Assembly: GCA_964016885.1 (NCBI GenBank)
Contig: OZ024740.1
Span: 405,294,001 to 405,358,000, forward strand
DNA length: 64,000 nt
Direction: 5' to 3'
Origin: Eledone cirrhosa
Taxonomy: Eukaryota
The translations under genes were made by a program, and so were the position numbers. Positions 3,343-53,750 of this stretch are shown here, piece after piece; the stretch's first letter is position 1, and each line of letters starts with the position of its first letter. The notes below the pieces were generated by a model. That model was given only the letters and a program-made list of their open reading frames with translations, was not told the DNA's origin and did no database searches.

Positions 3343-3768
3343 ATTAGTCTGCCCACTACTAATTTTCATAGAAAAAGCATATAACGATATGTGCTTTTAC
3401 GATTCTCTAGAAAGGCCGGAAGATAGGTAAATATTGCTGATGAGATGTAACAACATCGAAACTAGTCCAATATTCCTTGTCTGGCTTTCTGGAGAATAGA
3501 GGAAAGGTGTTTCCTCGAAAACCAGTATGACTCTAAAAACCGGTTTGTCTGTGTGTTTACATACAGAATAGCTGGACACTCACAGTAAAGTGTCCAGTGA
3601 AAAACTCGGTACATCTACATATGTACACGTGTGTGTATTCATATGCATACTAGTATTTCAGTATACATATGTGGATGTACATTTTTAATTTAATTGTTTA
3701 AGCGTCAGTCATACAAAAGTGAGTTACAAACGAAACGAAATTTAATTTCGTTTCGTTATTTGTTTTTA
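3343..3768 (+). mobile_element. Near-monomer (about 426 of 466 nt) of hammerhead-containing retrozyme-like repeat, family A
   Basis: Highly similar to the unit at 13961-15080; flanked by (TA)n on both sides; no ORF. Confidence 0.9.
3430..3474 (+). ncRNA. Type I hammerhead ribozyme, intact core, predicted GUC cleavage after 3467
   Basis: aatattg-CTGATGA-gatgt(aaca)acatc-GAAA-c(ta)g-TC-caatatt: all conserved core nucleotides and stems I-III are present. Confidence 0.92.
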
Positions 3769-5936: not shown

Positions 5937-7850
5937 ATACTCTTTACTCTTTTACCTGATTCAGCCATCCGGCTGAGGCCATGCTGGGGCACCGCCCTTG
6001 TTGCTACACATTTTATCTCCAGCCTGTATAGGTTGGCCACTGGTGTAGGAGGGAGTTTGTTGCTGCTGCCCTTAGGTTTCCCTCGTGTCTTGCTGTGGGC
6101 TCATCCGGGATCCTGGATAACAAGGTGTCGAGATGTTTCTTAAAGACATCCACCTCCACGTCATGCAAGTCTCTCAGATGCCCCGGCAGCCTGTTGAAGA
6201 GTTGAGGGCCCTTGAATCCCAGGCTATTGCAATACCTGCTCCTTATTCTGGATGTGGAAGACGGGACCTTTGGCACTACACAGTGACGTCCTGTTGGACG
6301 GTTGGTCCAGCTCCCAGTGCCAAAGTTTGGTGCTAGTCCCTCCAGGATTTTCCACATGTAGATCACTGCGTATCTCTCCCATCTTCGCTCCAAGGAGTAG
6401 AGGTTCAGTTCCTTTAGCCTCTCCCAGTAGCTTGTCTCCCTCATCTTGGCAATCCTCTTGGTGTAGCTTCGCTGGATTGCCTCAAGCTCCGTGGTCAGTT
6501 TGACACTATGGGGTGACCACAACTGGGAGCAGTAGTCCAGGCGGCTTAAGACAAAAGTCCTCCACAGTGTCAACATGGTGTCTCGATCTCTTGTCCGAAA
6601 AGTCCTCAAGATCCAGCCAGCGAGTCGTCTGCATGTTGTCGCCACTTTCATGATGTGTGAAGAAAAAGATGCATCATCGCTCATGTCTATGCCCAGGTCT
6701 CGTACCGATTTTGACACGGGGATATCGGTCCCTCCTGGTCCTGTGTAGCTGTGTTCCACTATATTTGTGTTTGCAGGTTTGTATTGTAGGGCTTGGAATT
6801 TGCCAGCATTAAACTGCATGTTGTTTTCTTCCGCCCATCTGTATATGGCATCCAGATCCTGCTGTAAAAGGGCAGCGTCAGCCGGGTTTTTGATTGCCTG
6901 TGCTACCTTAGTGTCATCAGCATAGCTAGTGAGGGATGTTGTTGCATGCACTACAGAGGGCATGTCCGAGAGAGCCACCAAATACAGTAGTGGTCCCAGG
7001 ACTGTCCCCTGGGGCACCCCACTTGTTATCGGTGTTTCCCTCGAGAGGGCCCCATTTGCTGCAACTGCCTGGCTTCTGTCCCTTAGGAAGCCATGCAGCC
7101 ACTCACCTACTTTTCCAGTTATGCCGAGTCCGTGTAGTTTGTGACATATCATTCCGTGGTCGACCTTGTCAAAGGCCTTCGCAAAGTCATGATATATCAC
7201 GTCCACATGTGAGCTGTCTAGTAGTTGTCTCAGTACCCAGTCGTAGTGATGTAGCAGCTGTGTAAGGCAGCTTCTTCCTGGGCGGAAGCCATGTTGCGTG
7301 CTAGTCAGGCGGTCATTTTCTTCGAGGAAAGTGATTAGTTTCTTTCTGACGACTCGCTCCATGACCTTACTGATATGCGACGTCAGGGAGACTGGCCTAT
7401 AGTTCTTGGCCTCCGCTCTACTACCTCCTTTATGGATAGGGCATATTGTGCCTTCTTTCAGCTCCCTGGGTAGTACACCGCTAGCCAAGGAGCTTCTGAA
7501 GAGCATCTTCAGTGGAGTTGCTAAGGCCCGCTTACATATTTTTAGGAGAACTGCTGGGAATCCATCAGGTCCAGCAGCCGAGTCTGTTCTCATTTCATCA
7601 ATGGTGTACACCACATCCTCCTCCGTTATGTCTATGTGGTTGATGGTTGCCATTTCTTGATGTAGTGTTATGGCATCAAAGAACTCCTCTGGCTTCATTA
7701 TTTGCATGTGCCTCAGTGAGCATGTGAAGACACTTTTGTACTGTTCGTTCAGTATTTCACATATCTCTTGGGGATTTTCGGTTAATGAACCGTCCGTGTG
7801 GAAGAGTGGCCAAATCTTGCAGTGTACTGAGGCAGTTTCTTTTGCAAATT
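5937..7850 (-). mobile_element. 5-prime-truncated CR1-group LINE; RT ORF open from ~7850 to 6013; 3-prime tail ...gtaaaagagtaaagagta
   Basis: Motifs AAGPDG, NYRPVSLTS, QHGFR, DFAKAFDKVDH, GVPQGTVLGP, YADD, RDLG, LDYCSQLWSP, LYSLERR. The N-terminal part of the ORF call is microsatellite. Confidence 0.93.
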
Positions 7851-9826: not shown

Positions 9827-9996
9827 TTGGTATATATATATATATAGGTATATATATATATATATATATAGGTATATATATATATATATATAGGTATATA
9901 TATATATAGGTATATATATATATAGGTATATATATAGGTATATATATATATATATATATATATAGGTATATATATATAGGTATATATATACATAAT
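9093..9996. repeat. (TA)n array switching from TACATA/TACACA to TAGGTA interruptions at ~9745
   Basis: Read directly. Confidence 0.95.
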
Positions 9997-10261
9997 CGGA
10001 AAAAAATGAAACGATATTTCATTTCCCACTCTTAGTACGGCTGTTACTTAAATATAAGTATGTACACGTACATACATATATGTATACCGACGTACAGTAG
10101 TATGTATATATATATATACATACATGCACACATATATATATGCACGTATGGATTCACCGAACATTTATTATAATGCTCGGTGTGTTTGTAAACAAACATC
10201 CCGTATTAAGCCGTAGTGTCTAGCAACCACCGTTGCTCGTTTGTTCAACACTGACAAAGGA

Positions 10262-10304
10262 ACGCTGTACTAGTTTCAAGCTTGTTAGCTATTGTCAGCA
10301 ACGT
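10262..10304 (-). ncRNA. Type I hammerhead ribozyme with a G8-to-A core change (possibly impaired), GUA site
   Basis: Minus strand: acgttg-CTGACAA-t-agct(aaca)agct-t-GAAA-c(ta)g-TA-cagcgt. Stem I extends over 10243-10329. Confidence 0.8.
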
Positions 10305-10328
10305 ATACCTTCCTGCCAGATTGTTGAA

Positions 10329-10379
10329 CGTATATACTTACCTTATGCATATTAACGGCTGACTAGCCAATTTGCATAG
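10329..10379 (-). promoter_or_regulatory. Candidate snRNA-type promoter block (octamer ATGCAAAT 10370-10377, TATA-like 10331-10336)
   Basis: Aligns without gaps to the family A block at 14251-14300. Promoter function is inferred. Confidence 0.5.
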
Positions 10380-10559
10380 CGGCCGGGTGCACCGAAAACG
10401 ATAAACGGAAAAAATGAAACGATATTTCATTTCCCACTCTTAGTACGGCTGTTACTTAAATATAAGTATGTACACGTACATACATATATGTATACCGACA
10501 TACAGTAGTATGTATATATATATATACATACATGCACACATATATATATATATGTATAT

Positions 10560-10620
10560 AGGAACCAGTAAGACCCCGACAGCTGAGCTCAAGCCGTTTC
10601 GACGGCTAATTCTGGACTAA
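10560..10620 (-). mobile_element. Truncated Penelope-like pLTR end with the 3-prime half of a hammerhead
   Basis: Minus strand reads GAAA-cggct(tgagctc)agctg-TC; similar to 28218-28270. Confidence 0.55.
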
Positions 10621-10889: not shown

Positions 10890-11262
10890 GGTGTATATAT
10901 ATATATATATATATAGGTATATATATAATATATAGGTATATATAGGTATATATATATATATATATTGGTATATATAGGTATATATATATATATATATATA
11001 GGTATATATAGGTATATATAGTAATAATAAAATTGAAGACTAAAATCCAAAGAGGGCTCGATAAGGAAAATATATATCAGAACCGAAGAGCAAATATTTA
11101 TTAATATAACAGATTAAAGTTTAAGCAAAGAATCGCTGCTTTCACCTTTAACGGGAGTTTCAGAAGATCCCGTTAAGGTTGAAAGCAGCGATTCTTTGCT
11201 TAAACTTTAATCTGTTATATTAATAAATATATATATATATATATATAGGTATATATATATAT

Positions 11263-13542: not shown

Positions 13543-13759
13543 AAGTTAAAAATGTACATCCATATATGTATACTGAAATACTAGTATGCATATGAATACA
13601 CACACGTATACATATGTAGATGTACCAAGTCTTTCACTGGTTACTTTACTGTGAGTATCCAGCTATTCTGTATGTAAACACACAGACAAACCGGTTTTTA
13701 GAGTCATACTGGTTTTCGGGGGAACACCTTCCCTCTATTCTTCAGAAAGCCAGACAAGG

Positions 13760-13804
13760 AATATTGAACTAGTTTCGTTGTTGTTACAACTCATCAGCAA
13801 TATT
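13760..13804 (-). ncRNA. Type I hammerhead ribozyme, intact core, GUU site
   Basis: Reverse complement reads aatattg-CTGATGA-gttgt(aaca)acaac-GAAA-c(ta)g-TT-caatatt. Confidence 0.9.
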
Positions 13805-14178
13805 TACCTATCTACCGGCCTTTCTGGAGAATTGTAAAAGCACATATCGTTATATGCTTTTTCTATGAAAATTAGTAGTGGGCAGACTAATTTGCATAGA
13901 GTGTGAGTACGCACCGGTTCAGCGGAGACGATAAAAACAAATAACGAAACGAAATTAAATTTCCTCAAAAACCAGTATGACTCTAAAAACCGGTTTGTCT
14001 GTGTGTTTACATACAGAATAGCTGGATACTCACAGTAAAGTAACCAGTGAAAGACTTGTTACACCTACATATGTATACGTGTGTGTATTCATATACACAC
14101 TAGTATTTCAGTATGCATATGTAGATGTACATTTTTAACTTAATTGTTTAAGCGTCAGTCATACAAAAGTGAGTTACA

Positions 14179-14217
14179 AACGAAACGAAATTTAATTTCG
14201 TTTCGTTATTTGTTTTT
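14179..14217 (+). terminator. Hairpin followed by a T-tract; candidate terminator or processing signal of family A (recurs at ~14645 and ~3729)
   Basis: aacgaaacgaaa(tttaa)tttcgtttcgtt then atttgttttt. An equivalent hairpin plus T-run is in family B at 10409-10432 (minus). Confidence 0.45.
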
Positions 14218-14250
14218 ATCGTCTCCGCTGAACCGGTGCGTACTCAGACT

Positions 14251-14300
14251 CTATGCAAATTAGTCTACCCACTACTAATTTTCATAGAAAAAGCATATAA
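14251..14300 (+). promoter_or_regulatory. Candidate snRNA-type promoter block (octamer 14253-14260, PSE-like segment, TATA-like 14294-14300); recurs at ~14717-14766 and ~13850-13899 (minus)
   Basis: CTATGCAAATT-N14-TAATnTnCATA-N4-AAG-YATATA, with spacing identical to family B. Confidence 0.5.
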
Positions 14301-14345
14301 CGATATGTGCTTTTACAATTCTCCAGAAAGGCCGGTAGATAGGTA

Positions 14346-14390
14346 AATATTGCTGATGAGTTGTAACAACAACGAAACTAGTTCAATATT
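14346..14390 (+). ncRNA. Type I hammerhead ribozyme, intact core, GUU site; extended stem I spans 14318-14413
   Basis: aatattg-CTGATGA-gttgt(aaca)acaac-GAAA-c(ta)g-TT-caatatt; outer pairing attctccagaaag/ctttctggagaat. Confidence 0.92.
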
Positions 14391-14811
14391 CCTTGTCTGG
14401 CTTTCTGGAGAATAGAGGGAAGGTGTTCCCCCGAAAACCAGTATGACTCTAAAAACCGGTTTGTCTGTGTGTTTACATACAGAATAGCTGGGTGCTCACA
14501 GTAAAGCAACCAGTGAAAGACTTGTTACACCTACATATGTATACGTGTGTGTATTCATATACACACTAGTATTTCAGTATGCATATGTAGATGTACATTT
14601 TTAACTTAATTGTTTAAGCGTCAGTCATACAAAAGTGAGTTACAAACGAAATGAAATTTAATTTCGTTTCGTTATTTGTTTTTATCGTCTCCGCTGAACC
14701 GGTGCGTACTCAGACTCTATGCAAATTAGTCTGCCCACTACTAATTTTCATAGAAAAGGCATATAACGATATGTGCTTTTACAATTCTCCAGAAAGGCCG
14801 GTAGATAGGTA

Positions 14812-14856
14812 AATATTGCTCTTGAGTTGTAACAACAACGAAACTAGTTCAATATT
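14812..14856 (+). ncRNA. Hammerhead copy with mutated core (CTGATGA changed to CTCTTGA), probably inactive
   Basis: Otherwise identical to 14346-14390. Confidence 0.8.
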
Positions 14857-15076
14857 CCTTGTCTGGCTTTCTGGAGAATAGAGGGAAGGTGTTCCCCCGA
14901 AAACCAGTATGACTCTAAAACCGGTTTGTCTGTGTGTTTACATACAGAATAGCTGGGTGCTCACAGTAAAGCAACCAGTGAAAGACTTGTTACACCTACA
15001 TATGTATACGTGTGTGTATTCATATACACACTAGTATTTCAGTATGCATATGTAGATGTACATTTTTAACTTAATT

Positions 15077-15114
<38 letters not shown>

Positions 15115-15556: not shown

Positions 15557-15866
15557 TCGTTTCTGAATTTGTTTAGCAAGATTCTTTATCTGAAATCGTG
15601 TGTTGAATATGTAGGATAGAAGAAAGGAAAGGCACAGAAACAAAGGAAAGGAATCCCCAGTCACTGAAGAGGTCACAGAGTGTGTGACGAAAGGACTATG
15701 ACTATATATAAACAACTATCTGGTTGTGGAACCAACCAACCAACCAGAAATTTATAAGTTTGTAAATTTGTAAATTTATAAATTTATAAATATATAATAA
15801 ATTGAAGTGAAAGCAACTGGTGCGTGTGTTTCTTATTGGCAACATGACCCTCCCAAAGTATAACAA
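15557..15866 (+). mobile_element. Short HHR-bearing insert (pLTR-like or retrozyme-like, family C) in (TA)n
   Basis: Contains an HHR at 15659-15703. Its end (caacatgaccctcccaaagtataac) resembles window positions 31-55. Confidence 0.65.
15659..15703 (+). ncRNA. Minimal type I hammerhead ribozyme, CUA site
   Basis: agtca-CTGAAGA-g-gtcaca(gagtg)tgtgac-GAAA-g(ga)c-TA-tgact. Confidence 0.78.
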
Positions 15867-17416: not shown

Positions 17417-20400
17417 AAATAAATTAAAGCAAATCGAAATTGCTTTTAAATTAATCAATAAACATTTGGATAAACTACGGTGTGTTTTCTCTTCGAATGC
17501 TGTCCAGCAGCAGCAGCAACAACAACAGCAGCTACAACAGCAACAACAACAACAGCTACAACAACAACATCAACAACAGCTACAACATCAACAACAGCAA
17601 CAACGACAACAACAGTGTGAACCACTCCTTGATTCATCAACAATGGCCGATCTACTAAATGAAACTATTGACCCCCCAGTAGCCTCTGTCTCACAGCATG
17701 AAACGCCACATCCTTTCTCTGGCCCAGCAGTCCAATCATCACCACTGCCAACATCTCTGCCTACTACTACTACTACTACTACAACATTTTTGTCTACTGC
17801 TATGTCAAGGAATTTACCTTCTAATACCAGAACAAGAACTCTCCCTCCACAGTCCACAAAGGTCGTCAAATCCTACCAAACCATCATCTACACCTCTCAC
17901 AACACCACACCCACATACCCACCCACTCAAAACCCCATCATTTGCACTACTCTCTACGCTATAGAATATGTACGGATAGTGGCTGCAAATTCACCCATTT
18001 ACCTATGACAAAACGATCTATCCCCACAAATAGCCACCACCATAATACAAACTCTAATTTAACACCAACACAACACCAATAACTCAAACAAGGAATCCAC
18101 AAATCTGCCGTTTTTCCCTGCGAGACAGATTGTGTTTAGACCGGGATTGTCCCTTTACCCATCTCCCCGGGATCCGTCGGATAATGAAAATAAAATTAAA
18201 AATAAAAGCAAAAACAAAAACCATAACCTACATAAAAATAACCACTACCACAGTCACCAACAGTCTTCTAAACAGGAAACTTCTTCCTCTTTTTTAGCCA
18301 TAATGAATCTGGCAAAAGAACTGGAAAAAAACATTCGAGCTATCACCCAGCACCACCCTCCACTATCACCCCACTGCACAAACTCCCATTGCTGCATTAA
18401 CAAACAAACAAATTAACAACACACCAAAACAATTAAAACCATCCACTCTCGCCTCTACATTTTTGCTTAACGCCCAAGGCATCAGCCCTTCCACCAATAC
18501 TCAAAAATGGAAGATCAAATTCCTGAGGACTGGATTGATGTCCATCCAAACCACATCCCTTTCTTCGTCCTCACTGAAACCCATCTCAGTAACCTCCACT
18601 TGGAAGCCGAGGTGAAAGTGAAAAATTTCAAAGCCATCCGTGCTGATCGCGCTGGCAGAAGAAAGGGCGGAACTGCCATTTATGTCCATAATTCTTTCTC
18701 AACAGAGGCTATGAACATATTCACTAATGGATACTGTGAGGCAGTCACTGTATTCAGTCAAACCAACAACCTATTAGTAGTTGGGCTCTATAGGCCACCC
18801 CAAACGCCTGTACCATGCTTCAAGGAATGCCTCAACAGCATAAAGTGTTTCATCCAAGAGTGTCACCCTGACAACATCTTAATGATGGGGGACTTCAACC
18901 TCCCCGGAGTTGACTGGTCCACAAACACCCTGCCACCAGGTTCTTCTGCCTCAACCTCTGACAGGGAAGCTGTGGAATCGCTTCTTGACTTCATGGATGA
19001 TTTCTTCCTATCCCAACTAGTGCTCGAACCAACGAGGTGCCACAAAAACGTCCTAGACTTAATTTTCAGCAATCACACTGACAATATCCACAATATTGCA
19101 GTGGAGAAAACTCTACTCTCTGATCATGACATGGTTCTCTGTGATCTGAGATTCCACCGTCCAATATACAAACCCAATGTCATCTCTCCTGTCCATCCGT
19201 TTGACGCTATGGATTTCCACAATGCAAACTGGGAAGCGATCAGTCATGATCTTGCACATGTCGACTGGTCCTTCACGCACACTCATACACCCACTAACAT
19301 CAAAAAGTCCTGGCAGACATTTGTGGACACTGTTACAAACATATGTGCTAAACACACCCCATTAAGAACTATAAACAAATCTAAGAGCAGAATCCCTAGA
19401 AATAGAAAAACGCTCATCAGAAAAATTAAGAGAACGAACAAAAAAATCAACAAGCTGAAATACTGTCAGCAGCAACACATCAACTTGACTGCCATTTCAT
19501 CACTAGAGATTAAAAAACATAACCTCCAAAACAACATAATGTCCCTCATCAACAATCAGAGAAGAGCTGAAGAGGCCCGGGCCATTGAGAAGATCAAACT
19601 CAATCCCAAAGTGTTCTTTTCATTTGCAAAAAAACACAAAATCACTGGCTCTACTGTTGGCCCTCTAATTGATGAAAATGGCACTCTTCAAGACAATGCT
19701 AAAACCATGGGTGAGATACTGCAGAAACAATACTGCTCTGTTTTCAGCAATCCTGATATGGCCGATCTGGGCTGTATCGGCGATGTTACTCCCCATTACA
19801 CCTTATCGGACATAACGTTTGGCGCCCCTGATGTCTTGGCGACAATAAAGGAAATCAAGCATAATTCAGCAGTAGGTCCCGATAGGTTCCCTGCTTGTGT
19901 CTTGAAGGCGTGTCAACACCAACTTGCTTCTCCTCTTGCCAATCTGTGGCGGAACTCACTGGATGCTGGATATGTGCCAGAAAACCTTCTATCCCAGTCT
20001 GTTGTCCCAGTTTTCAAAAAGGGAAACAAATCCCTTGCCGTGAATTACCGTCCAATCTCACTCACCTCTCATATCATTAAGGTATTTGAGCGAGTGGTGA
20101 GATCGCGAATGACCCACTTCCTTGAGAGTAACAATATGCTGAACTCCAACCAGCATGGATTCCGTAATGGAAGGGATTGCCTGACGCAACTACTGCATCA
20201 CTTTGATGACATTTTGAGAGCCTTGGGAGAGGGTTCCAACACTGATGTTATCTACCTTGATTTCAGCAAGGCCTTTGACAGGGTTGATCATAACATTCTA
20301 CTGAGAAAGCTGTCCAATATTGGTGTCACTGGAAAGCTGCTGCAGTGGATCAAGAGCTTCCTGTCAAACAGAACCCAACATGTTGTAGTTGAGGGAGTCA

Positions 20401-21556
20401 AATCAAGCCCAGCCATAGTCAGTAGTGGAGTCCCACAAGGCACTGTGTTGGGCCCACTTCTCTTCATCATCTATATTAATGACATCACTGACATCATCAA
20501 ACACAGCAACATTAAAATTTGGGCCCACTTCTCTTCATCATCTATATTAATGACATCACTGACATCATCAAACACAGCAACATTAAAATTTTCGCTGATG
20601 ATTCCAAGCTCCAAAAGGTCATCAATGGCGTGGATGACCGGATAAGCCTTCAGTCAGACCTACTGGCTGTTACCCAATGGGCAGAAAAGAACAACATGTT
20701 ACTGAACGAAGACAAATTCGAACTGATCCACTTTGGAAAAGAGGATGCTCTGAAACTCCCGTATTCCCTTCCCTCCGGGGAAACTCTCGTGGCATCTAAC
20801 AACATCAGAGACTTGGGAGTAACCGTGGACAGCAACATAAGCTGGACCACGCATATAAGCAGCAAAGTTGACATGGCCCGCAGAATGTGTTCCTGGATCC
20901 TCAGAACCTTCCAGTCGAGAGATTCCCGCACCATTATCCTTCTCTTCTCTACTTTCGCCCGACCACACCTTGAATACTGTTGTCCACTGTGGTCTCCCCA
21001 CACGAAACAAAGTATCATGAAACTTGAAGCTCCTCAAAGGGCAATCACGAAAAAGATAGATGGCATGTCAGACCTTGACTACTGGGGTCGATTGGAAAAC
21101 CTGAAACTTTACTCACTCCAACGTCGCCGTGAGCGTTATATTATCTGCATGATGTGGAAAATGTTCCATCATCACTGCCCAAATGATGTTGGCATCGCCT
21201 TCAAGATACACCCAAGGCTTGGGCCCCGTGCTATCCGTCCCATTCAAAAATCTAAATCGCAACTCATAACAACAATACAGCACAATTATTTCACCTCAAT
21301 CGGCCCTGCCTCTCTTCAACATCACACCAGGACACGTCAAAACAGAAACTGACCACACAAAATTCAAGAAGTCTTTGGACAAATTCCTCCAAGTAATCCC
21401 GGACAAACCACCCACACCCGGATATGTCTCCGCAAACAGTAATTCTCTTCTCGAATGGGCCATGGAGCCCAAATCCTGAATTGAAAGACTTCGCCAGGTG
21501 GTGCTATTAAGTTAGACATGGCCTGGGCCAATACTGGCCAAAACATTTCAAAGTTA
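17417..21556 (+). mobile_element. Long CR1-group LINE: Q/T-rich ORF1-like region, APE endonuclease plus RT ORF2 (disrupted), 3-prime hairpin
   Basis: ORF 18507-20645 (LTETHL, GLYRPP, MGDFN, LDLIF, SDH, NYRPISLTS, DFSKAFD, GVPQG) continues in 20519-21352 (FADD, LEYCCPLWSP, LYSLQRRR). Confidence 0.93.
18440..21479 (+). pseudogene. CR1 ORF2 (APE-RT) broken by a 71-bp tandem duplication and further frameshifts
   Basis: gggcccacttctc starts at both 20450 and 20521; the frame changes again near 21310. Confidence 0.88.
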
Positions 21557-23052: not shown

Positions 23053-23197
23053 ATATACTTATATATATATATATATATATATACTTATATATATATATAT
23101 ACTTATATATATATATATACTTATATATATATATATATATATATGTGTATATATATACTTATTTATATATGTATATATATAATTATATATATATATA

Positions 23198-23562
23198 TCA
23201 TCATTTCATCATCATCATTTCCTTTTACGTCCGCTTTTTCCCTGCTTGCAAGGGTGGGACGGGAACTGATGCTGGCTTGATTTCTACAGCTGGATGCCCT
23301 TCCTAACACCAACCTCATTTACAGTGAGTGCCGGGTGCTTTTTGCTGTGGCACCTCCACGACCACTTTACAGTGGAATGATAGGGACTGGGGTCCCTATC
23401 ATTTCACTGTAGAAATTCCATCTCATTTCTACAGCTGAGTAAACTGGAGCAATGTGAAATAAAGTGTCTTGCTCAAGGAAACAACACATCACCCGGTCTG
23501 AGAATTGAACTCACAACCTTTCGATTGCAAGGCCAATGCTCTAACCACTAAGCCATGTGCTT
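23198..23562 (-). mobile_element. tRNA-derived CORE-type SINE with an RTE-like 3-prime tail ending in (GAT)n
   Basis: A box TGGCTTAGTGG, B box GAGTTCAATTC, core ccttgagcaagacactt. The tail shares ggatgcccttcctaacaccaacc with RTE copy 8119-8290. Confidence 0.8.
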
Positions 23563-23912
23563 CCATATATAGGTATATATATATATATAAGTATATATAT
23601 ATATATATATAAGTATATATATATATATATATATATAAGTATATATGTATATATATATATATATATAAGTATATATGTATATATATATATATATATAAGT
23701 ATATATATATAAGTATATATATATAAGTATATATATATAAGTATATATATATATATATATATATATAAGTATATATATATATATATATATATATATAAGT
23801 ATATATATATATATATATATAAGTATATATATATATATAAGTATATATATAAGTATATATATAAGTATATATATAAGTATATATATAAGTATATATATAA
23901 GTATATATATAA

Positions 23913-24308: not shown

Positions 24309-27300
24309 AAGATCTCGGTCCAGTGACATTGTCTTGGAGAGGTGTAAGTGTGAGAGGTCGGAATTTATCAATTCGTCCCAGGTTTTTCTGGGTCTGCCTA
24401 CTCCGTGGCTACCGTCTATTTTTATAGCCCTGCACTTTTTTATACAGCTGTCGTCTTTCATGCGCATCACGTGACCATACCAACGTAGTCTTCTCTTGAG
24501 TAAACAACATCTGATCCCTCTTATATCTAATTTTTCCTTAGTTCGTTTATGCTTTGCCGTTCACGTATATTACTATTACACATCCAGCGGATCATGCAAG
24601 CTTCGTTCCTCTCCAGTCTACGTATATCCTCTGCACACAATGCCCAGGTTTCACTGCCATGCAACATTGCTGTTCGTATGCAGGCATCATACAGCCTGCC
24701 TTTCATTTTTAGGGAGAACCCTTTAGCGGCTAATAGTGGTATAAGCTCTCTGAACTTTTTCCATCCAGTTCTGACTCTAGCTACTGTACTTTCAGAGCAC
24801 CCTCTCCCACTGCTGATTGTGTCACCCAGGTAACGGAAGCTGTCCACTATTTCTATAGAACCATCTGTGCAATGGAATGAGCCAGTATTCTGTGGGCACT
24901 TGCTGCTACTTATTGCACCAGAGCACCAGCCACATATAAAATCTATGTTCTTAGTTAGCTTACCTGTGATCCCACTACATCTTTTATGCACCCATACTTT
25001 GCATTTGGGACATAAAATGGAGTTTCTACCTACTCCTTTCCTACACACTGAGCATGGCCATTTTGCAGATGGGACCGGCGCCCTATTTTCCTTCCTACAA
25101 ACTAGAACTTTAGTCTTAGACAGGTTAATTTTAAGTCCTTTTGATTCTAGGCCATGCTTCCATGTTTGGAATTTCTTCTCTAGTTTGGCCATTGATTCAG
25201 CTATGAGCGTTAGATCATCTGCGTATAGGAGTTCCCATGGGCAGCCGGTCTTGAACTCCTCTGTTATAGCCTGAAGGGCAATAATAAATAGTAAGGGACT
25301 AAGAAAGGAGCCCTGATGAACACCAACTTTTACGCTAAACTCTTCACTATATTCGTTGTTAATTCTAACCTTGCTGACTGTTTCTTTATACATGGCTTGT
25401 ATAGCTCTCACAAGCCATTCATCAACACCTAGTTTTCTAAGAGCCCACCAGATAATGGAACGGGGGACTCTGTCGAAGGCTTTCTCCAAGTCGACAAAAG
25501 CTAAGTATAGGGGTTTACTTTTAGCTAGGTACTTCTCCCGTAGTTGTCGTACAATGAAAAGAGCGTCTGTGGTACTTTTACCTGACACAAACCCGAACTG
25601 CATTTCATCTAGATCAATTCTCTCTCTGATTAGTTGCGCTATTACTTTTTCTGTGACCTTCATGACCTGGTCGATTAATTTAATGCCTTTATAGTTACTC
25701 CTATCTAGGGCATCTCCTTTACCCTTGTAGCAGTTAATGATGATGCTGCTACGCCAGTCCTTCGGAACAACCCCATTCTGTAAGACTTGGTTTACTATCC
25801 GGCTGACCATGGTGTGTCCCACCGTTCCAGAAGCTTTCAACATTTCGGCAACTATTTCCGAAGGCCCAGCCGCCTTACCCGTCTTCATATCCTTGATTGC
25901 CTTACTTATTATACTACCCTCGACTAACACTGCTGGTCCCTCTATTGGGTCGATGTGGGGGAGACTGTCTTTCTCCCATTTATTCTCCTCATTTAGTAGC
26001 CTTTCATAGTGACACTTCCAAGCTACCTTCTTATCAGCGTCAGTGATGGGAAGTACACCATCATCATTAAGGACCCACTTCTCCCCGACAATATCACGGT
26101 TTTCCTTGACACATTGCCTAGCAATCCTGAACACCTCACGTTTTTGGTCCTCGCGTTGTAGAACATGCTTGAACTTTCTTTCCTCTGTTTCCCTTCTTGC
26201 GAAGTACACTTGTCTCCTAGCTTCCCTCCTGGCCACTTGATAGTCTTCTCTACTTCCCCCATCCCGCCATACTTTCCAAGCCTGCTTTTTGGCCTTAATT
26301 GACTCCTCCACCTTACTGTTCCACCACCACGTTACTCTCCTCCTGCCTATAGGCCTGCTCCAGCCACAGACATCATCTTCTGCCTTCAGCAGGTTAGCTT
26401 TCAGGAATACCCACTGTTCCTCTATATTGTACGACTCTAATTGCTCTTCCTTACTGTCAAAAGCATCAAGTAATATGCTTTTAAATTTATTACTGGCTGT
26501 GGGGTCCTTCAGCTTCCATATTTTTCTCCTGAGGATAGTCCTCCTCTGTTGTCGAGTACATCTTGTCCTGACTACGAGGGCGCTGATTATGAGTCTATGT
26601 TGGGAGGTGTATTCTTCATGGGGGAGGGATTTAGTGTTTACAACAGACACTCTATCACATCTTCTGGTAAGGATATAATCTATCTGACTGGCGTGTTCCC
26701 CTGATCTATAGGTGATCAAGTGATTGTCTCGTTTTTTGAAGTTAGTCTTACAGATAGTTAAGTTATTTGCGTCACAGAATTCCAGGATTCTGGAGCCTTC
26801 CTCATTTCTAGTACCAAACCCATAGCCTCCATGGATTCCATCATAGCCATCACAATGTTGTCCAACATGACACTTTAGGTCGCCAGCAATAATTATGTAG
26901 TCACTGTCGGTTATTTGGGAGGTAGTGAGCATCACTGTCTCATAGAATCTGTCTTTTATAATGCCAGGCAGTCCGGATTGGGGTAGGTACGCAGATATTA
27001 CTGTCACAGTAGTTCTAATTAGGACAAGTCTTATTTTAATTATTCTGTCGTTCACTCTATTTACGTCTATTATCTTATCTACCCATTTTTCTGCTAACAT
27101 GATTCCTACCCCACCCAGCCCATTGTCATTTCCCACCCAGAAAAGCTTATAGCATCGTTTTTTACCCACAATGAATCTAGCAGACCCACCCCTCCAACTG
27201 GTCTCTTGGATACAGCAAACATCAACCTCCTTACGTTCAAGCATTTCTACAACCTCGTCAGAGCGACCTTTTAAGGTGCCTACATTCATGGTACCAACTC

Positions 27301-27460
27301 TGAAGTTTTGGATTGCGTTTGGTGGGTGGGAACGGTGGGGTGCGGTGAGGGGGTTGGGGTTATGTTGGCCATCCGCGGCGAAATAAAGAGGAGTACTTGC
27401 CTTTTCGTCCAGCAGCATGAGGTGAATTTGTCTTTATCTTTGGCATTGTCATTGAGTGTC
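24309..27460 (-). mobile_element. Near full-length RTE-clade LINE whose 3-prime end is lost at the (TA)n array
   Basis: Single APE-RT ORF; C-terminal LRWYGHV and GRPRKTW motifs lie in a downstream frame. Confidence 0.95.
24527..27418 (-). CDS. RTE LINE APE endonuclease-reverse transcriptase (963 aa) with an internal PHD-like C4HC3 finger
   Basis: [69 protein letters not shown]. Confidence 0.92.
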
Positions 27461-28217: not shown

Positions 28218-30720
28218 GGAAAAGAGTCAGGTCACCAACAGTTGAGCTCCGGCTGTTTTGACAGCTAGAACCGAACTAACCTAGCAGTATTAGGATGGCA
28301 GGGACCTAGCTGAACTTATCAAGCGGTACAGTTCATATATGGGCATGCAATCAAAACAAAAAAAAGCAGAAATATCAAAGCAAACAATCCTAAGAATTTG
28401 TTGTTTTTCTTGTCTGTCACGGGGGAGTGGTCAATTATTTGGGGATGTCATGTATATGGTTAAGTTCTTTCATAGCAGTGGGATGGCCGAACTGGCTTGT
28501 AGAGCAAAGTGTGTGGGGGGGGGGGGGGGGACATTCCGACCTGTGGGTACCAAGCGGGTCAGGCGTTAAGAGAGAAAATCTTTACAACTATCTCTAATGG
28601 GGGTAAGAAAGTAAATCCAGCATATGAGAATTAAGGAAGGTTGTTAGAGTGAAATTAACTATGCCATGTTTAGCACTTAGCTAGAGCAAAGCATATAGAT
28701 ATTGATACTAATTAAATTCCTAATAAATCAAATTTAGTTATCAGTTACTCTAAAGCATCGGAACGACACCTCAATACAGTAATTAACTAGTATTTTCTTT
28801 TATAATAATACACCCCCCCAAAAAAACCATGGCTATGTGTTTGGCTGGTTCTATGTATATTATATTTAACAAGAGTGAAAATTTGCCGGGTTAACCTAAG
28901 GAAGAATAGAAACTGATTATAAGTGTAGATATGCAAAGATATACCTAAATGTAATTAGTGTGTGTAACTAAATGAAGAAAAAAGAAAAAATCCTATTTCT
29001 ACCTAAGTATGCTTGGGGTTTCTTCTATCTTAGTTTGTAAATAAGAAAGAGATACAGCCTAGGTCCACCCACCTGGGTTGTGAGGGGTTTTGAAGATATG
29101 TCCTATGTATTCTGTGTTTACACGAAGTAACAAGTTCATCCTTTTTGTTTAAGAGTTGGTCCTTTGCAAACAGCCTCTGGATCGTTTCCTTCAAGCAGAA
29201 ATTGCACGGACGGCATCCTCCCGTGTAAGGTTTTGCGTTGGAAAGTATGCTCCAACTTAGATGGTAGGTAATATTGTTGTCTTGGAGGTCTCAAATATGG
29301 CCAGAAAGTGCTGTCGCGTGTCGATGGGCCGGGTTTCTAAATGTCTGATGGTGTTGGTAATACCAGGTCTTAAAATCACAGGCGGTTAATCCAATGTAGG
29401 CCTTGTTGGAGTTTTCTGTCCTCACATTGCACTGCTAGACCACGTTTCGTTCTCGGCATCTATTGTTGAGGGGGCACGATGATCTATCCAGACAGTTACA
29501 CCTACTAGTTTGCTCGCCACTAATATCATTGTTGTTTCTTCTGTTGGAGAGGAGTTTTTTGTTGTTAAGTGAAGCAATGTTTTGTGCAAAGTTGGGTGTA
29601 GTGCTGTAGGAAAGTTTAACAGTGTTTCTGTTGATGATCTTGTGGTAACGGTGTTGGGGTGGGAAGTGTTTATCCAGAAGTCTGAAGAAGATCTTCCTGA
29701 TAGGTGTTGCAACCTCAGCATTGTGGGGAGGGTTGAACCATGTTACGTGGCGTGAGCGGCGGTGTCACCTGCTGGATCTGCTAGAAGGGCCTGGATAATA
29801 TGAAATGTCCTCCTGGAAGCCACTTCTTTTGAGGGCCTGGTTGTGTTCGTTGAAGATTTACTTGTTTGCGGACAAACGAGATATACGGAGGGAGATATTT
29901 TTTACTAAGTTGTTGATAATGTTCCTAGGATGGTTAGAACTGTGGTGGATATAGCATAGGTTCTCATTAGGTTTCCTAAATGGGTAGTACAAATTATTCT
30001 CCAGGATGAGTGTAACATCCAGAAAATTGACGCGAGTAAGGGAAGTCTGTAAGTTGATTTCAAAACTTAAGTCCCAGAAGAATTTAATGAGGTGTTTAGG
30101 ACCTGGTCCATGCTACTGGGGTTGTACCCTGTAAGGGTAAGAAGCCACTCATCTCGATACAGACCACTGCCAAACACAAGAAAATTTTCAATGAGTTTAT
30201 GGAGTATGTATAGTCCTATAAGGTTGGTCACATCAGCCGAGTCAGTCGAGCCCATACTGACGTCAAAAGAAGAGTCTGGAGCTCTCTTTATCCAAGTGGA
30301 GTTTTCAAAGAGCAAGACGGTCTTCCTAGCGTGGAATATGATTTCGGTGTAATAGTTTTGGCGTGATCCAAAACAGCCATAAGGAGTGGTTGGGTAATAG
30401 AAGCATAGTAGTTCTCAATGTCGAACTTGATGAAAGTGGTATTCCGTTAATCCTTTATATTCTTAAACCAGGAGATGACTTCCTGAGTGCTAACCCAAAG
30501 GCTAAGCCTCGTGTTTTGCTTCACTTTGGGTATAACACGATACAGAATCTTTTTACTGATCTTGCTTATATCTGACTTTGTCAGATCTAGCTGTCGAAAA
30601 GGCAGGCAGTGCTCAGCCGCCAGAGTCCTAACTCTTTTTTCTATTACCCACTCTACTACCCTAAGTATTGAGTTCTGTGGTGCAAAATGGTCCACCTGGT
30701 TCCTTACCATGCCTTCTTTG
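28218..30720 (-). mobile_element. Decayed Penelope-like element (YRD[D]-type RT, C-terminal GIY-YIG; resembles the Nematis group) with a degenerate 3-prime hammerhead
   Basis: Minus-strand peptides KSDISKISK..EVISWFKNI, FDVSMGS..LIGLYIL..GLYRDE, AYIGLT..FKTWY..H, WSILSNAKPY..CNFC; stops and frameshifts; (TA)n at both ends. Confidence 0.85.
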
Positions 30721-48339: not shown

Positions 48340-51300
48340 ACTATTAGTATGAAAATAAAACAAACAAATGTGTATAGAATTAAATATAGGACATTTAAGT
48401 AGCGCAATATGCGATGACAAGGGCCAGCCAGACCTGGAACACAGAGAACAGGACACACACACACAGACGGATTTCTGTTTATTTTCCACGAGAGCACAAA
48501 AGAAAGGACACATACATGGGGGGGGGGGGGGGTTACATAAAAATTGAGTAAAAGAATGTAATAACAAATAAAATTATAACGAAAAGGTCCTCAATAGGGA
48601 GGGATCGTTTTGGGGTCACACACACACCCAGAAAAAAAAATGTGCGACCCTTCTCCACGGGAGCACAAAAAGAGGGTGCTCCCTTCTTCCTTCATCCTTT
48701 TCCGTCTACAGGTTGAGGTAGAGAGAAGGCCCATTCACACGGGCCATTCTCGCAACTTTCACCCACCTTTCATAAAACTGGCTGGGGTGGAGCACCTCTC
48801 TCTCCATCCTGATCCTTCTTCCGAAATGGTATCGGAAGAAAAGGACTAGTTGTTGGCCGGAAAGAAAGGTGTCTAACCTCAGCCCTTTTAGACGCGTCCA
48901 CCATACAACCTCTTTTACCATGGCTATTACACAGAGGAAGACCGCCTCTCCTTCATTTTTGAAGAGGGGAGGCGGCTTGATCGTTACAATGGACTCGGTG
49001 GTCAACCTGATTGGTCCCACCCGTGACAGCAGTTGTTCGACATAGCCCCACAGATCGGCAACGCTGGGGCAGTGTACCAAATAGGCTTGCCAGTTCGTCC
49101 TCCTCCATGCCTAGGGTTTCTCCGAGGGCGTTGTCGCACCTGCTAACCACCAGCCCTCTTTAGAATGATGAGGTGGAGTCTCCACCGATAGCCGGGTCCA
49201 CCTGCCAGAGAACTGTGAGCGCCTGGGCACACTCGGTGTGCCAGTCGCCCAGTTTTCTCGGTCTTTGCTTCACCCAGGACTGCAGCTCGGTGAGCGAGAC
49301 GAGCCTCGGAAAGGCTCGCCTCACAAACGGGGCCCACACTGGTTGACCGGTGAGGAATACCTGGAGGTGTCGTAGCCTCAATGCGTGTTTACGCATTTTT
49401 AGCCACGGCATCCCCAGCCCTCCTTTCAAAGGGTGTTGACAGCAGATGGATCACCTCACCAGAGAAGCCCTCTTCTTCAAAAGGAATTGGAAGAGAGCGC
49501 GCTCCATTTTGGTGAGGATCTCACCCAGGCAAGGCACGACAGTCAAGCGGTAATAGATGACGGACGCTATGTAAGTGTGCCACCTCCGCCCGACCTTTCA
49601 GGGATAGTTTGCACTCGGCCCACTTCTGGGTCAGTGCAAACACCCTATTCGTAACCTCACCCCAGTTTTTCTCCACCTGGAGGTCCGAACCAGACCCCAA
49701 GCAACTTCACCGGGCTCTCCTTCCAACGATACCGTCAGATGGCATCGGTTTGCCCCTCCACTCGCCGAGTTGCAAAGTCCCGGTTCAGCTTAGCCCCTGT
49801 CAACCTTTCGTACTCCTCTAGTAAGGTGCTGATTGCCTCGATTTCCGAGGTGGTCGACACCATTACTGTTACGTCATTGGCGTAGGCCGACACTGCTTTG
49901 CGCAATCCCAGTTCCAAAGGGATGCCCTGCAACAACTCCAACTTCCGCAGTAGTGACTCGAGAGCCAATACATACAGAAGGGAGGAGAGAGGGCACCCCT
50001 GTCGGATGGGGCGGGAGATTTCGAACGGCTCCGAGAGGTAGCCGTTCACCTTGACTCTAGAGCAGATGCGGCTGCTATGCATGGCAGTGATCCAGCCCCT
50101 GAAAACGGGTCCGAACCCAGCCGCCGCTAGCACCGCATCCAGGTAACCATGGTCCACCCTATCGAAAGATTTAGACTGATCTAAATTGATCAGGGCCCCA
50201 CCAAAGCCGGGTTCGTTCCCAAACCTCTCTATGATGTATCGCATGAGGTGGAGGTTGTCGTGGATGCATCTGGACGGGATAGCGCATGTCTACGCATCTC
50301 CCACCAGTCCCCCACGACAAGCGCCAGCCTATTCGCTAACACCTTGGCCAAAATCTTTAACTCTGCATTTAGCAGAGTTATGGGCCTAAAATTACTAATG
50401 TCATCCCCTTTGTTCTCGTCCTTCCTCACTAATGAGACTATGCCCTTGGTCACAGAACAGGGAATTCTCCCGTTCTGTTGCCAGTTGCAGTAGACTGCCT
50501 CGAGATCGGGGAACAAGTCTGGCATATTAATATATAGTTCGTAGCGCAGACCATCGAGGCCTGGAGATATGCGTTTGCCACATAGGCTTAGCACGTCCCC
50601 TATTTCAGCAACTGAGATCGGCCTCTCGCAGGACCTCGCCTCCTCGTCCGAAAGATGCGGCAGGCCGTCGAGGTATGGACCGAAATCCACATCCCCACCC
50701 CTCCCGAACAATCGGGCAAAGTGCCTTTGAAAGGCCTCGCACATTTGCTTAGGTTCAAGGATCACCCGTCCATCTTGGTCTAGCAAAGACCGGATAGTGG
50801 ATCTAATCCCACTTTTGGCTTCTGTCACGCGGGCCCAGCTAACAGCTTTGGTCCCCTCGTTTCCCAGAGCACGTATTTTGCTTCGGACAACGCAGCCTTC
50901 GTGTTTCGCATCGAATAACTGGCTCAAGGCCGTTCTCGATGCTTGCATTCTGGCCACGTTGCCGCTTCTAATTGCCTCTTCAACATTAACTACCAACTCC
51001 CTTTCCTTCCTATTTCTATCTGAAGCTAACTCCTATTGAAACTACTCTAATCTCTCTTTTCAGAGAGCCCCACCACCTGCTGTTGTCGATGGCGCCCATC
51101 AACCGTTCCTTAACTAAGGTTCTAATCCAGTCCCTGTAAGCTCTACTTGCCGGTAAGAGCAAGTTGAGCTTCCAGTAACCAGGTCCCTGCCTATGCGTTC
51201 TATCAAGGTGGACTATGCAGGTCACTAACTTGTGGTCTGAATAGCCCACCATGAGCATTTCTGGACAACTTAAAAAGTCCCTATCCTTAATTCTAACTAA

Positions 51301-53750
51301 GAACCTATCTAGGTACGATCTAGATTGGCCGCTGTGGTTTGTCCAAGTTCAGGTTGGCACAGTCGGAAAATCTAGTCGATATTTATCGGCCAGGTCAAAT
51401 CGGCCGATTAACCCCTTGAGGTTGTTACACCCCCCTCTATCGGGACATGCCCCTACATAGTCCCAACGTGCATCTAGGATACCATTCCAGTCCCCCACTA
51501 AAAGCAAGGAGCGAGACATCCGTAGAAAAGTCTCCAGACGATGGAAGAAGTCCGGCCGCATTGCCCCAAAAGGGGCGTATACGGCGACAAGCCTAAAAGC
51601 TTTGCCTTCACAACTGCCAAGGTCCAGAACCACTAGTCGACCCTCCGAGTCCAAGTGTACCGTCTCTGTAGCGAGACCCAGATGTTTTTGCAGCAGAACG
51701 ACAACCCCACCCCCACCTCCGGGCTGACAGAGAGATGCGTGCATCTCAAAGTCATCAAAGGTGGGGGCTAGCTGTCGCATGCTGCTAATCCGGGTCTCGC
51801 AAATAACCATCATATTTATACATCATGACCTGAGGTCATTTAGAAGTTTAGCTTGCTCCCAAGGTGAGCCCAGGCCATGTGCATTTAGACAACCTACTCT
51901 TAACACAGCCATGCTGGTGGTAAAGAGAGAGGCACTTACCTCTCTGCGTCCTGGGGTCCGGGCTGTTCAGTTTCCATGGGGGAGGGGGGTATTAGTGTGT
52001 GGAGGGGTTGGGGTGTTTTGAATTGTGTGGCTGTTTGAGGAGGGGAGGAGAAAACCTTTCAGGAGGACGCAGTTGTGTGGCCTGGTGCAGGGTGGCCCCA
52101 CGTCCTCAGGGTAAATGTTTTTCAATGTTTTAAAAATGTCAAGTGGGACTTCACATTTTCAGGTTAGGGAGTCCCATTGTAAAATTCGGCCCTTCGGTTT
52201 GTACCGAAGTGTTATCGTTTATTTTGTCTACTAAGATTTTATTGTTTTTGTTTATGTATGTGTAGAGTTTTTGTGTTGTTGTTTGTTTTTGTTTGTTGTT
52301 CTTGAGTGTGCTTGCGTTTTGTTGTCTGTGTTGTGTTGTCAGGTGGGGTTATTTTTGTTTGTGTGGTGTGTGTACGTTTTTTTCTTTTGACTTTTTGGAA
52401 GGGAGCCCCCTTGTCTTCCAAGGATATGAGCTCCTCTTCCGTATTGGAGGGGAGGGGTATATTACCAGGTGTTGTTTGCACTGCATGTGTTTTTTTATTT
52501 GTGTTCTGAGGGGAGGGGCTGGGTGAGACCTTTTTTGGGGTTGTTTTCTTGAGCTGTTGTTGTTGTGGTGGTGTTGGTGGTGTTATTGTTTGTGGTGTTT
52601 GTAATAATGGTTTCTTTTTTATCAGTTGAGGGCATGCAGCCCTCAGGTGACCTTTGCTTGCACAGTGGTAACACGCGGGTCGCCTACCCTCAACTGAAAT
52701 ATTTATGTAGGTCTCTCCATCTAAATGAATTCTCTGTGGGATCTTCGCTATCCTTTCTGGGCTCATCTGCACCAGAAGTTCTATGCTGGTCCCACTAAAG
52801 ACCTCTCTGGGGGGACTTTCCACCTGAGATTATAATGTCTTGGTCAAGGTCTACAATGCCACAATGTAGCCAAGTGTCTACTTTGGGTCTTATGCAGTTG
52901 AATTTTATTTTTTGAGACCTTCTTCCCATCTAAGATGGGGAAAAGGTGAAGTGGAATGTTTTTGCGCCGTTTCTTGATCCTTCATAAGCACCGAGATGCT
53001 ACTGAAGAGTTTTCCTTTTTGAATGAACAAAATGCTTTCCATTTGGTTCCTTAAAACCATCTCTATCTCACTCTGAGACGGTTGTACTGGGTTTTTTTTG
53101 TAGCATTCGAGATTGTCCTGAACACCACCGTGCTCGTGGCAATTTCTCTTTTTTATTTCTTCAGGGAAATTAATGCTGAATGAACCATCGGGTTCGAAAG
53201 TCACATACCTTTTTGCTTCTTCCAACTTTTGCTTTGCGTTGGTTAAATCCAAGGTGTTTTTTTTACAGTTTCCGCAAAGGAAATTTTGTTGTCGTTGTCT
53301 TTCTTGTTATTGTTGTTGTTGTCGCTGTTCACTTTGGTGTTCGTATTGGTATCGATAATTTTTCCGTTGCTGGTATTATTTCCAAATTTTTTCTTTTAGG
53401 TTGTTGTCTGTTGTTCCTTATTAACGTTTTTTTTTAAAGGAAGCGGGGGAAGCTGGGCACTTTGTGCTTTCATTTTTCCTCGAAGATTTTTTTTTTTTCT
53501 TTGGGGAACATGGCACCATGACTTGTATTAATGCCATCCATTACTACAAGCTGAGTTCACAAAATTGTAAGAAGAAAACTTTCACCCCAAAAAGGGGCGA
53601 AAATAATAATAACCTCAACGTCTGCAGGCCCAAACGAGGGGTTAAAGTATATCACAATAGAAAAATAAATCCCAAAACACTCTTTACAAGGTAAAACCAA
53701 TGTAAAAGACAGAGCTCATTAATACACGTCTACCTCCGTCGACAGACAGA
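48340..53750 (-). mobile_element. Full-length-sized but disrupted Tx1/L1-clade LINE: ORF1 with a CCHC knuckle (~53400-52239) and ORF2 APE-RT (51912-48706)
   Basis: CYHCASKGHLRAAC; ICET, GDWN, YSDH, GYWKLN, SPGLDG, NFRPITLLN, LDQSKSFDRVDH, IRQGCPLS, YAND, GGLGMP; multiple frameshifts. Confidence 0.9.

Follow-up and report, generated by a model that had tools for sequence, protein, structure and literature searches.

Two hammerhead retrozyme families of Eledone cirrhosa share a predicted hairpin with an octamer, a putative POU site, in one arm

The metazoan non-LTR retrozymes described from coral, mussel and axolotl (Cervera and de la Pena 2020; PMC7229834) are short, non-coding tandem units of 170-400 nt with a type I hammerhead ribozyme, a weak stem III and a GC content of ~37%. 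A self-paired circular RNA is predicted for them and their host genomes contain Penelope-like elements; that account describes no promoter element, and its main text mentions neither octopus nor cephalopods. According to a 2020 review metazoan retrozymes seem to be promoterless (PMC7761336), promoters of plant retrozymes were reported later (PMC9695139, PMC12029980), and in their available text PMC6155905 and PMC2837043 do not mention promoters. The high transcription of animal retrozymes in all tissues poses a question of mechanism, in which the view of the 2020 review stands against two hammerhead repeats with promoters of their own: newt satellite 2, whose tandem units contain a Pol II promoter of snRNA type, and a schistosome satellite with an internal Pol III promoter (PMC2220036).

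Partial tandems joined to an inverted truncated copy in (TA)n are a layout known from Penelope-like elements (bioRxiv 2021.04.23.441226), for one of which internal priming has been demonstrated (PMC11167929); these elements are coding and carry a minimal hammerhead. For the giant squid, 235 hammerheads are mentioned and left unanalysed in the available text of PMC6962438. Our literature search found no report on retrozymes of cephalopods, nor one of an invertebrate retrozyme that has an octamer, in a field where subscription papers and supplements may hold more.

We analysed a 64,000-nt stretch of the Eledone cirrhosa genome (the window), which holds two families of hammerhead units, A and B, with every copy embedded in (TA)n:

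13968-15085 (+), tandem array of family A that holds 2.4 copies of a 466-bp unit and ends in (TA)n
13547-13967 (-), inverted truncated family A copy that adjoins the array, with its cassette at 13863-13899 and its hammerhead core intact
3343-3768 (+), solo truncated family A copy within (TA)n, with 27 differences
9995-10560 (-), family B, ~1.4 units of ~408 bp, ends approximate
14318-14413 (+), type I hammerhead of family A with an extended stem I (core CTGATGA at 14353-14359, stem II at 14360-14373)
10268-10298 (-), hammerhead of family B, with the deviant core CTGACAA

The units are short, tandem and non-coding, lack LTRs and have a GC content of 37-38%, and by these sequence features families A and B class as non-LTR retrozymes with a type I hammerhead, a newly described pair. 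They resemble the metazoan retrozymes in all the traits given above for those elements apart from unit size, which is at or above the published range, and apart from the inverted piece and partial tandem within (TA)n. That layout, the (TA)n targets and the variable internal 3' ends are shared with Penelope-like elements, from which A and B differ in being non-coding and in having a full-size type I hammerhead with an extended stem I.

In family A the hammerhead has a stem II of four pairs, a palindromic 2-bp stem III and a predicted cut after 14383. A first-pass annotation, made from the letters of this DNA, had taken the units for hammerhead elements, and this is upheld by a match to Rfam Hammerhead_HH9 (38.6 bits, E 2.5e-7, under the gathering score of 52) and by two-sided changes in stem I as well as stem II; at the gathering score an Rfam scan of the window returned no match. 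Numerous miRNA matches at the E-value level in Rfam were set aside as (TA)n hairpin noise. The core is intact in three of the four family A copies in the window, the second array copy being deviant (CTCTTGA). The solo copy, which starts with the final two bases of the octamer described below and stops at a T5 run, retains a GUC cleavage triplet and a compensatory change in stem II. Folded as a circle, one unit is predicted to form a chain of hairpins with a long stem I extension (14318-14413).

Variants and joints were taken from contigs, rather than raw reads, of four of six public runs (X1, X4, X5 and X6, with X2 and X3 left out); X1-X4 belong to one study, perhaps the source of the window DNA, and X5 and X6 are of low depth. 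Run X1 has 1028 contigs matching family A, some of them entering (TA)n, a contig number that is no copy number. Family A is dispersed, with two loci within the window, and joints that step back one unit occur in three of the four runs. None of the 26 variant sites listed falls in the hammerhead core. In run X6 a 496-nt contig of depth 4.5 spans the unit (14100-14565) with a self-overlap of the kind that a tandem or a circle gives. Among the same 26 sites (14100-14565) A/G variants number 15 and C/T variants 7; RNA editing before reinsertion was considered as a cause of the A/G excess and set aside as a possibility only, the sites being too few and not polarised.

Whole units of A and B are colinear, with a global alignment score of 271 against 112 +/- 11 in 200 shuffles, and judged from this alignment the two families are homologous along the entire unit. 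Common descent would be enough to account for the block common to both, which the first-pass annotation had described as an internal promoter cassette of octamer, PSE and TATA held at exact spacing. The features of this cassette are as follows:

14251-14287 (+), cassette inverted repeat of family A (5' arm 14251-14264, loop 14265-14273, 3' arm 14274-14287)
14253-14260 (+), exact octamer ATGCAAAT, within an 11-nt run that is the longest exact match of A and B
14717-14753 (+), second copy of the cassette
10343-10379 (-), cassette inverted repeat of family B, with 12 of its 14 positions paired in the register of A
10370-10377 (-), exact octamer of family B, in that inverted repeat
14290-14313 (+), second predicted hairpin, in family A only, whose 5' arm contains the proposed TATA (14296-14299)

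The block does align without gaps as had been claimed, 31 of 50 letters being the same between 14251-14300 and 10330-10379 (minus), and it is kept in four window copies; its absence from other copies had been named as grounds for giving up the promoter idea. An octamer followed by 15 nt and TAAT is found at 14253-14279 (+), 14719-14745 (+), 13871-13897 (-) and 10351-10377 (-), four sites where 0.74 are expected in the window and a count that none of 100 shuffles reaches. Since three of the four sites are family A copies, the independent units are only two. The fixed spacing holds within the block and fails beyond it, TATA and hammerhead core being 57 nt apart in A and 36 nt apart in B. Similarly, the CGGTGC reported ahead of both blocks is present in both at differing distances (11 nt upstream in A, 9 nt in B), and the string quoted for family A is exact for the inverted copy (13850-13899, minus), the copy at 14251 having A instead of G at 14267.

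The best 49-mer of the cassette is identical between A and B at 31 of 49 positions, a value reached by 2 of 300 shuffles. The block is not uniquely conserved: ranked by ungapped 49-mers, a hairpin upstream of the cassette has 36 identities and the hammerhead 33, followed by purine-pyrimidine repeats (32 and 31) and the cassette. This upstream hairpin (14186-14234 in A, 10386-10434 minus in B), the best-kept block of the two families, is conserved in sequence, contains no known motif and has a T run and TTTATCGT after it. In another hairpin, one with a two-sided change, TGTTTACA is exact in A (14470-14477) and in B (10187-10194, minus). We take this word to be like a forkhead site.

The first-pass annotation had overlooked that the block is an inverted repeat. 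What it read as the PSE is the 3' arm, which reverse-complements the arm with the octamer and so forms a degenerate second octamer with one mismatch, 17 bp off. Counting 14251 as position 1, position i faces position 38-i; A forms 13 of the 14 pairs in this register and B forms 12. Of 119 control octamers taken from the metagenome loci listed, five reach 12 pairs or more and two reach 13. In the circular fold of family A the predicted pair probabilities are 0.87-1.0; in family B they fall from 0.83-0.92 at the outer pairs through 0.29-0.53 at the middle pairs to 0.06 at the three innermost in register, the last because B favours a shifted inner stem, so that the single two-sided change in the cassette is weak support for pairing. 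When the regions are folded in isolation, A gives a z-score of -3.65 over 14245-14345 and B one of -0.59, no better than shuffles. The cassette hairpin is one among several predicted per unit, and the 3' arm of the second hairpin of family A sits in a 21-nt stretch missing from B.

The variants are a further line of evidence on pairing. Among the 26 sites in the four runs, six lie in pairs with a predicted probability of at least 0.97 and all six, the two in the cassette among them, keep the pair, nine lie in weak pairs (four of them broken) and 11 are unpaired. The variants listed for the cassette arms within family A are confined to the 5' arm (14262, common, and 14259, rare), with none in the 3' arm, and both are A to G, turning A-U into G-U. 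The variant at 14259, inside the octamer, makes up 0.8% of X1 depth and is seen in one low-depth X5 contig. In the solo copy nine of the 27 differences fall in strong pairs and eight of these nine keep the pair. From the inverted repeat, these pair-keeping changes and the modelled folds, we consider it very likely that the block is a hairpin in the unit RNA.

The octamer itself was said to be perfect in both families, and it is. The identity of A and B is 11 of 11 in the 5' arm, four of 14 in the loop region and nine of 12 in the 3' arm; all three outer-stem differences are on the 3' arm, a one-in-eight outcome by chance, and none is compensated in the outer 11 pairs. Elsewhere two-sided changes are seen in three of the four pairs of stem II and in two of nine in stem I. 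Shuffling produces an exact octamer in 57 of 3000 versions of A and 113 of 3000 of B (~2-4% per unit); an exact octamer, once there, would be retained ~5% of the time at 69% identity; its exact presence in both families has a chance of ~0.1-0.2% if the motif is named beforehand, and is weaker evidence if it is picked post hoc. As a sign of selection the longest shared run was dropped, since a run of 11 identities is common at 69% identity (P 0.88). Its exactness in both families makes it plausible that the octamer doubles as a POU-factor site for Pol II. Newt satellite 2 reportedly uses an octamer. Its Pol II promoter of snRNA type goes back to work by Coats, Zhang and Epstein (1994), as cited in PMC2220036. 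Compared by description only, families A and B differ from this satellite in having an invertebrate host and in carrying the octamer as the arm of an inverted repeat.

Octamer, PSE and TATA together had been read as a compact Pol III promoter of type 3. Families A and B resemble the known type 3 promoters (H1, U6, 7SK; PMC7949045, PMC3958870) in the exact octamer and in a TATA-like stretch less than 50 bp downstream, and differ in that those promoters lie entirely upstream of their own RNA, and in a short spacer, a weak PSE slot and T runs inside the transcript. The critical spacer between PSE and TATA in type 3 promoters is 15-19 bp, with the H1 elements fitting in 100 bp (PMC7949045), whereas the gap here is 8-9 bp in both families. 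This misplaces the supposed TATA, which in A is moreover the arm of the second hairpin, and together with the pairing of the supposed PSE it speaks against either as an element of a type 3 promoter. With the canonical PSE slot placed to start ~35 bp before the TATA and to be 18-21 bp long (PMC3958870), A and B are identical at 10 of 21 positions, four of 10 in the 5' half, which in insect PSEs is the most conserved part (PMC1761439). A PSE predicted for Schistosoma japonicum U6 (PMC5460494) matches A at 12 and B at 11 of 21 positions against a chance mean of 12.3. Our literature search found no mollusc PSE, and the available text of PMC9652321 gives the position of the human PSE only.

Read-through, proposed as the means by which the promoter travels inside the monomer RNA, is made doubtful for Pol III by T runs that come before the next cassette, since Pol III terminates at 4-5 T (PMC4287351):

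14598-14602 and 14679-14683 (+), two T5 runs of family A, after the proposed start and ahead of the next cassette
10409-10414 (T6) and 10000-10006 (T7) (-), T runs of family B in the place homologous to the T5 of A, before the next cassette

With these runs Pol III would be unlikely to yield a promoter-bearing monomer, and the inserted copies extend through them. The insertions end (3' ends at 3768, 13547, 15085 and 9995) at T5-T7 runs or at most ~20 nt past them; 12 contigs of X1 enter (TA)n right after the T5 at 14213-14217, with a loose end of this run at 14219. The vicinity of T runs is possibly a preferred site of internal priming.

We favour, with a probability of about 0.45, a reading in which the hairpin is common to the A and B retrozymes and its octamer arm acts as a putative POU site that aids Pol II transcription of the array. 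Pol II would make a multi-unit RNA from the array with the octamer as putative POU-factor site, the hammerhead would cleave each unit's RNA after 14383, and the monomers would become closed, highly paired circles with the cassette inside. A Penelope-like reverse transcriptase would then copy these circles into (TA)n, leaving partial tandems and an inverted piece. POU binding, Pol II, cleavage, circles and a Penelope helper are all steps that we infer. The reading is favoured by the 11 of 11 identities of the 5' arm, by the uncompensated changes of the 3' arm and by insertions that span the T runs; against it, the independent families are only two, stem positions evolve slowly anyway, the cassette-arm variants listed within family A all sit on the octamer's own arm, the isolated B region folds no better than shuffles, and the 2020 review holds that metazoan retrozymes seem promoterless. 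The idea of a self-promoter is precedented, and the presence of a promoter inside the unit, as the first-pass annotation had it, has parallels in the Pol II promoter of newt satellite 2 and the Pol III promoter of the schistosome satellite (PMC2220036); it is the A and B elements themselves that are new.

A serious competitor, which we hold to be quite possible, is that the block is a structural hairpin only, serving the stability of the circle or recognition by the reverse transcriptase of the helper, with the octamer there by chance and transcription supplied by read-through from the host. Such read-through is the published default (PMC7761336), and the homology of the units throughout, the equally good conservation of other hairpins, the pair-keeping G-U variants (one of them within the octamer) and the non-significant longest-run test (P 0.88) all agree with it. 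It has less to say about a canonical octamer that is exact in both families (~0.1-0.2% if pre-named, weaker post hoc) or about an outer stem of 11 pairs lacking compensatory change where other stems have several, and newt satellite 2 is a precedent on the other side (PMC2220036). If the octamer is idle, A and B are an ordinary new pair of retrozymes. The octamer can be altered with or without the hairpin, so two diverged families that keep it offer a cheap test.

Fuller promoters are harder to fit. Pol II promoters of snRNA type have a PSE ~50-65 bp before a capped start and a boosting octamer; of these the octamer is recognisable here. A complete SNAPc-dependent promoter of this kind, in which a host PSE overlaps the 3' arm and the palindrome is secondary, would suit the fixed spacing within the block and T runs that Pol II can pass, and such a host PSE is conceivable given that snRNA promoters are lineage-specific and fast-changing (PMC1761439). 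We nevertheless judge it unlikely: the letters kept coincide with the pairing partners of the octamer arm, a start ~47 nt past the proposed PSE would precede the hammerhead core in A and lie inside it in B, and the PSE predicted for S. japonicum U6 fits A and B no better than chance. The model of the first-pass annotation, an H1-like compact type 3 Pol III promoter plus read-through into the monomer, we regard as very improbable. An octamer separated by 35 nt from a TATA-like stretch in A and B alike, the packing of the H1 elements in 100 bp (PMC7949045), and T runs that resemble terminators in homologous places after a conserved hairpin, with several insertion ends at or near them, are in its favour; yet the short spacer, the poorly kept PSE slot and the T runs fit such a promoter badly, the insertions span runs at which Pol III would have terminated, and the family A TATA belongs to a hairpin. 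More speculatively, and in our view rather doubtfully, A and B could be invertebrate retrozymes with a palindromic snRNA-type Pol II promoter of their own, whose inverted octamer sites 17 bp apart act both in DNA binding and as an RNA hairpin. A retrozyme with such a palindromic promoter would be self-transcribing like newt satellite 2, and internal octamer promoters would be an old or recurring trait of animal retrozymes that accounts for their constitutive expression.

The last step of the favoured reading, in which POU-aided Pol II transcripts end as circles copied into (TA)n, calls for a reverse transcriptase, and one decayed gene of a suitable kind lies in the window outside the insertion:

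29087-30707 (-), decayed reverse transcriptase-endonuclease gene (tblastn E 5e-88 to proteins of 680-706 aa, ~40% identity)

This gene has stops and frameshifts, and a Pfam scan of it gave no family name. From its motifs we take it to be Penelope-like, and so a candidate for the kind of helper. The Penelope-type layout of the insertion fits a putative Penelope helper and lends it support.

Scans outside the host speak neither for nor against the readings weighed above. The cassette pattern has two loci in viral contigs, where no adjoining hammerhead was seen; the hammerhead pattern has five loci in viral and three in prokaryote contigs, in none of which a proper stem II could be seen on inspection; and the octamer-plus-hammerhead pattern shows both stems in none of its 14 matches in viral contigs. 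In metagenome contigs the latter pattern has at least 105 loci, and at least 36 matches pass a simple hammerhead test. Among the matches listed the hammerheads are minimal and of Penelope type, with octamer gaps scattered over 68-95 nt; none is like A or B, and no 400-470-bp period was found in the DNA examined. Two families of minimal Penelope-type hammerheads are seen in these matches (L025, L033, L034 and L120; L044, L054, L098, L111 and L121), with the octamer 82 and 85 nt upstream respectively; each is probably a set of copies of a single family picked by the search pattern.

The window as a whole contains many (TA)n tracts and LINE reverse transcriptase genes:

24527-27433 (-), LINE-type gene
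18471-21352 (+), LINE-type gene
6013-7850 (-), LINE-type gene
49735-52829 (-), LINE-type gene

One 968-aa open frame encodes an endonuclease, a reverse transcriptase and a PHD finger, and several of the reverse transcriptase genes are broken. A minimal hammerhead-like motif of Penelope-like form is present in a (TA)n island at 15655-15710 (+). Fold-back inversion islands in (TA)n lie at 307-839, 1348-1498, 11020-11221 and 23196-23571, and those at 307-839 and 11020-11221 contain hammerhead-like words with deviant cores. Family B is adjoined on its 5' side by a short GC-rich sequence (10560-10620) that includes a small hairpin and a tail rich in A.
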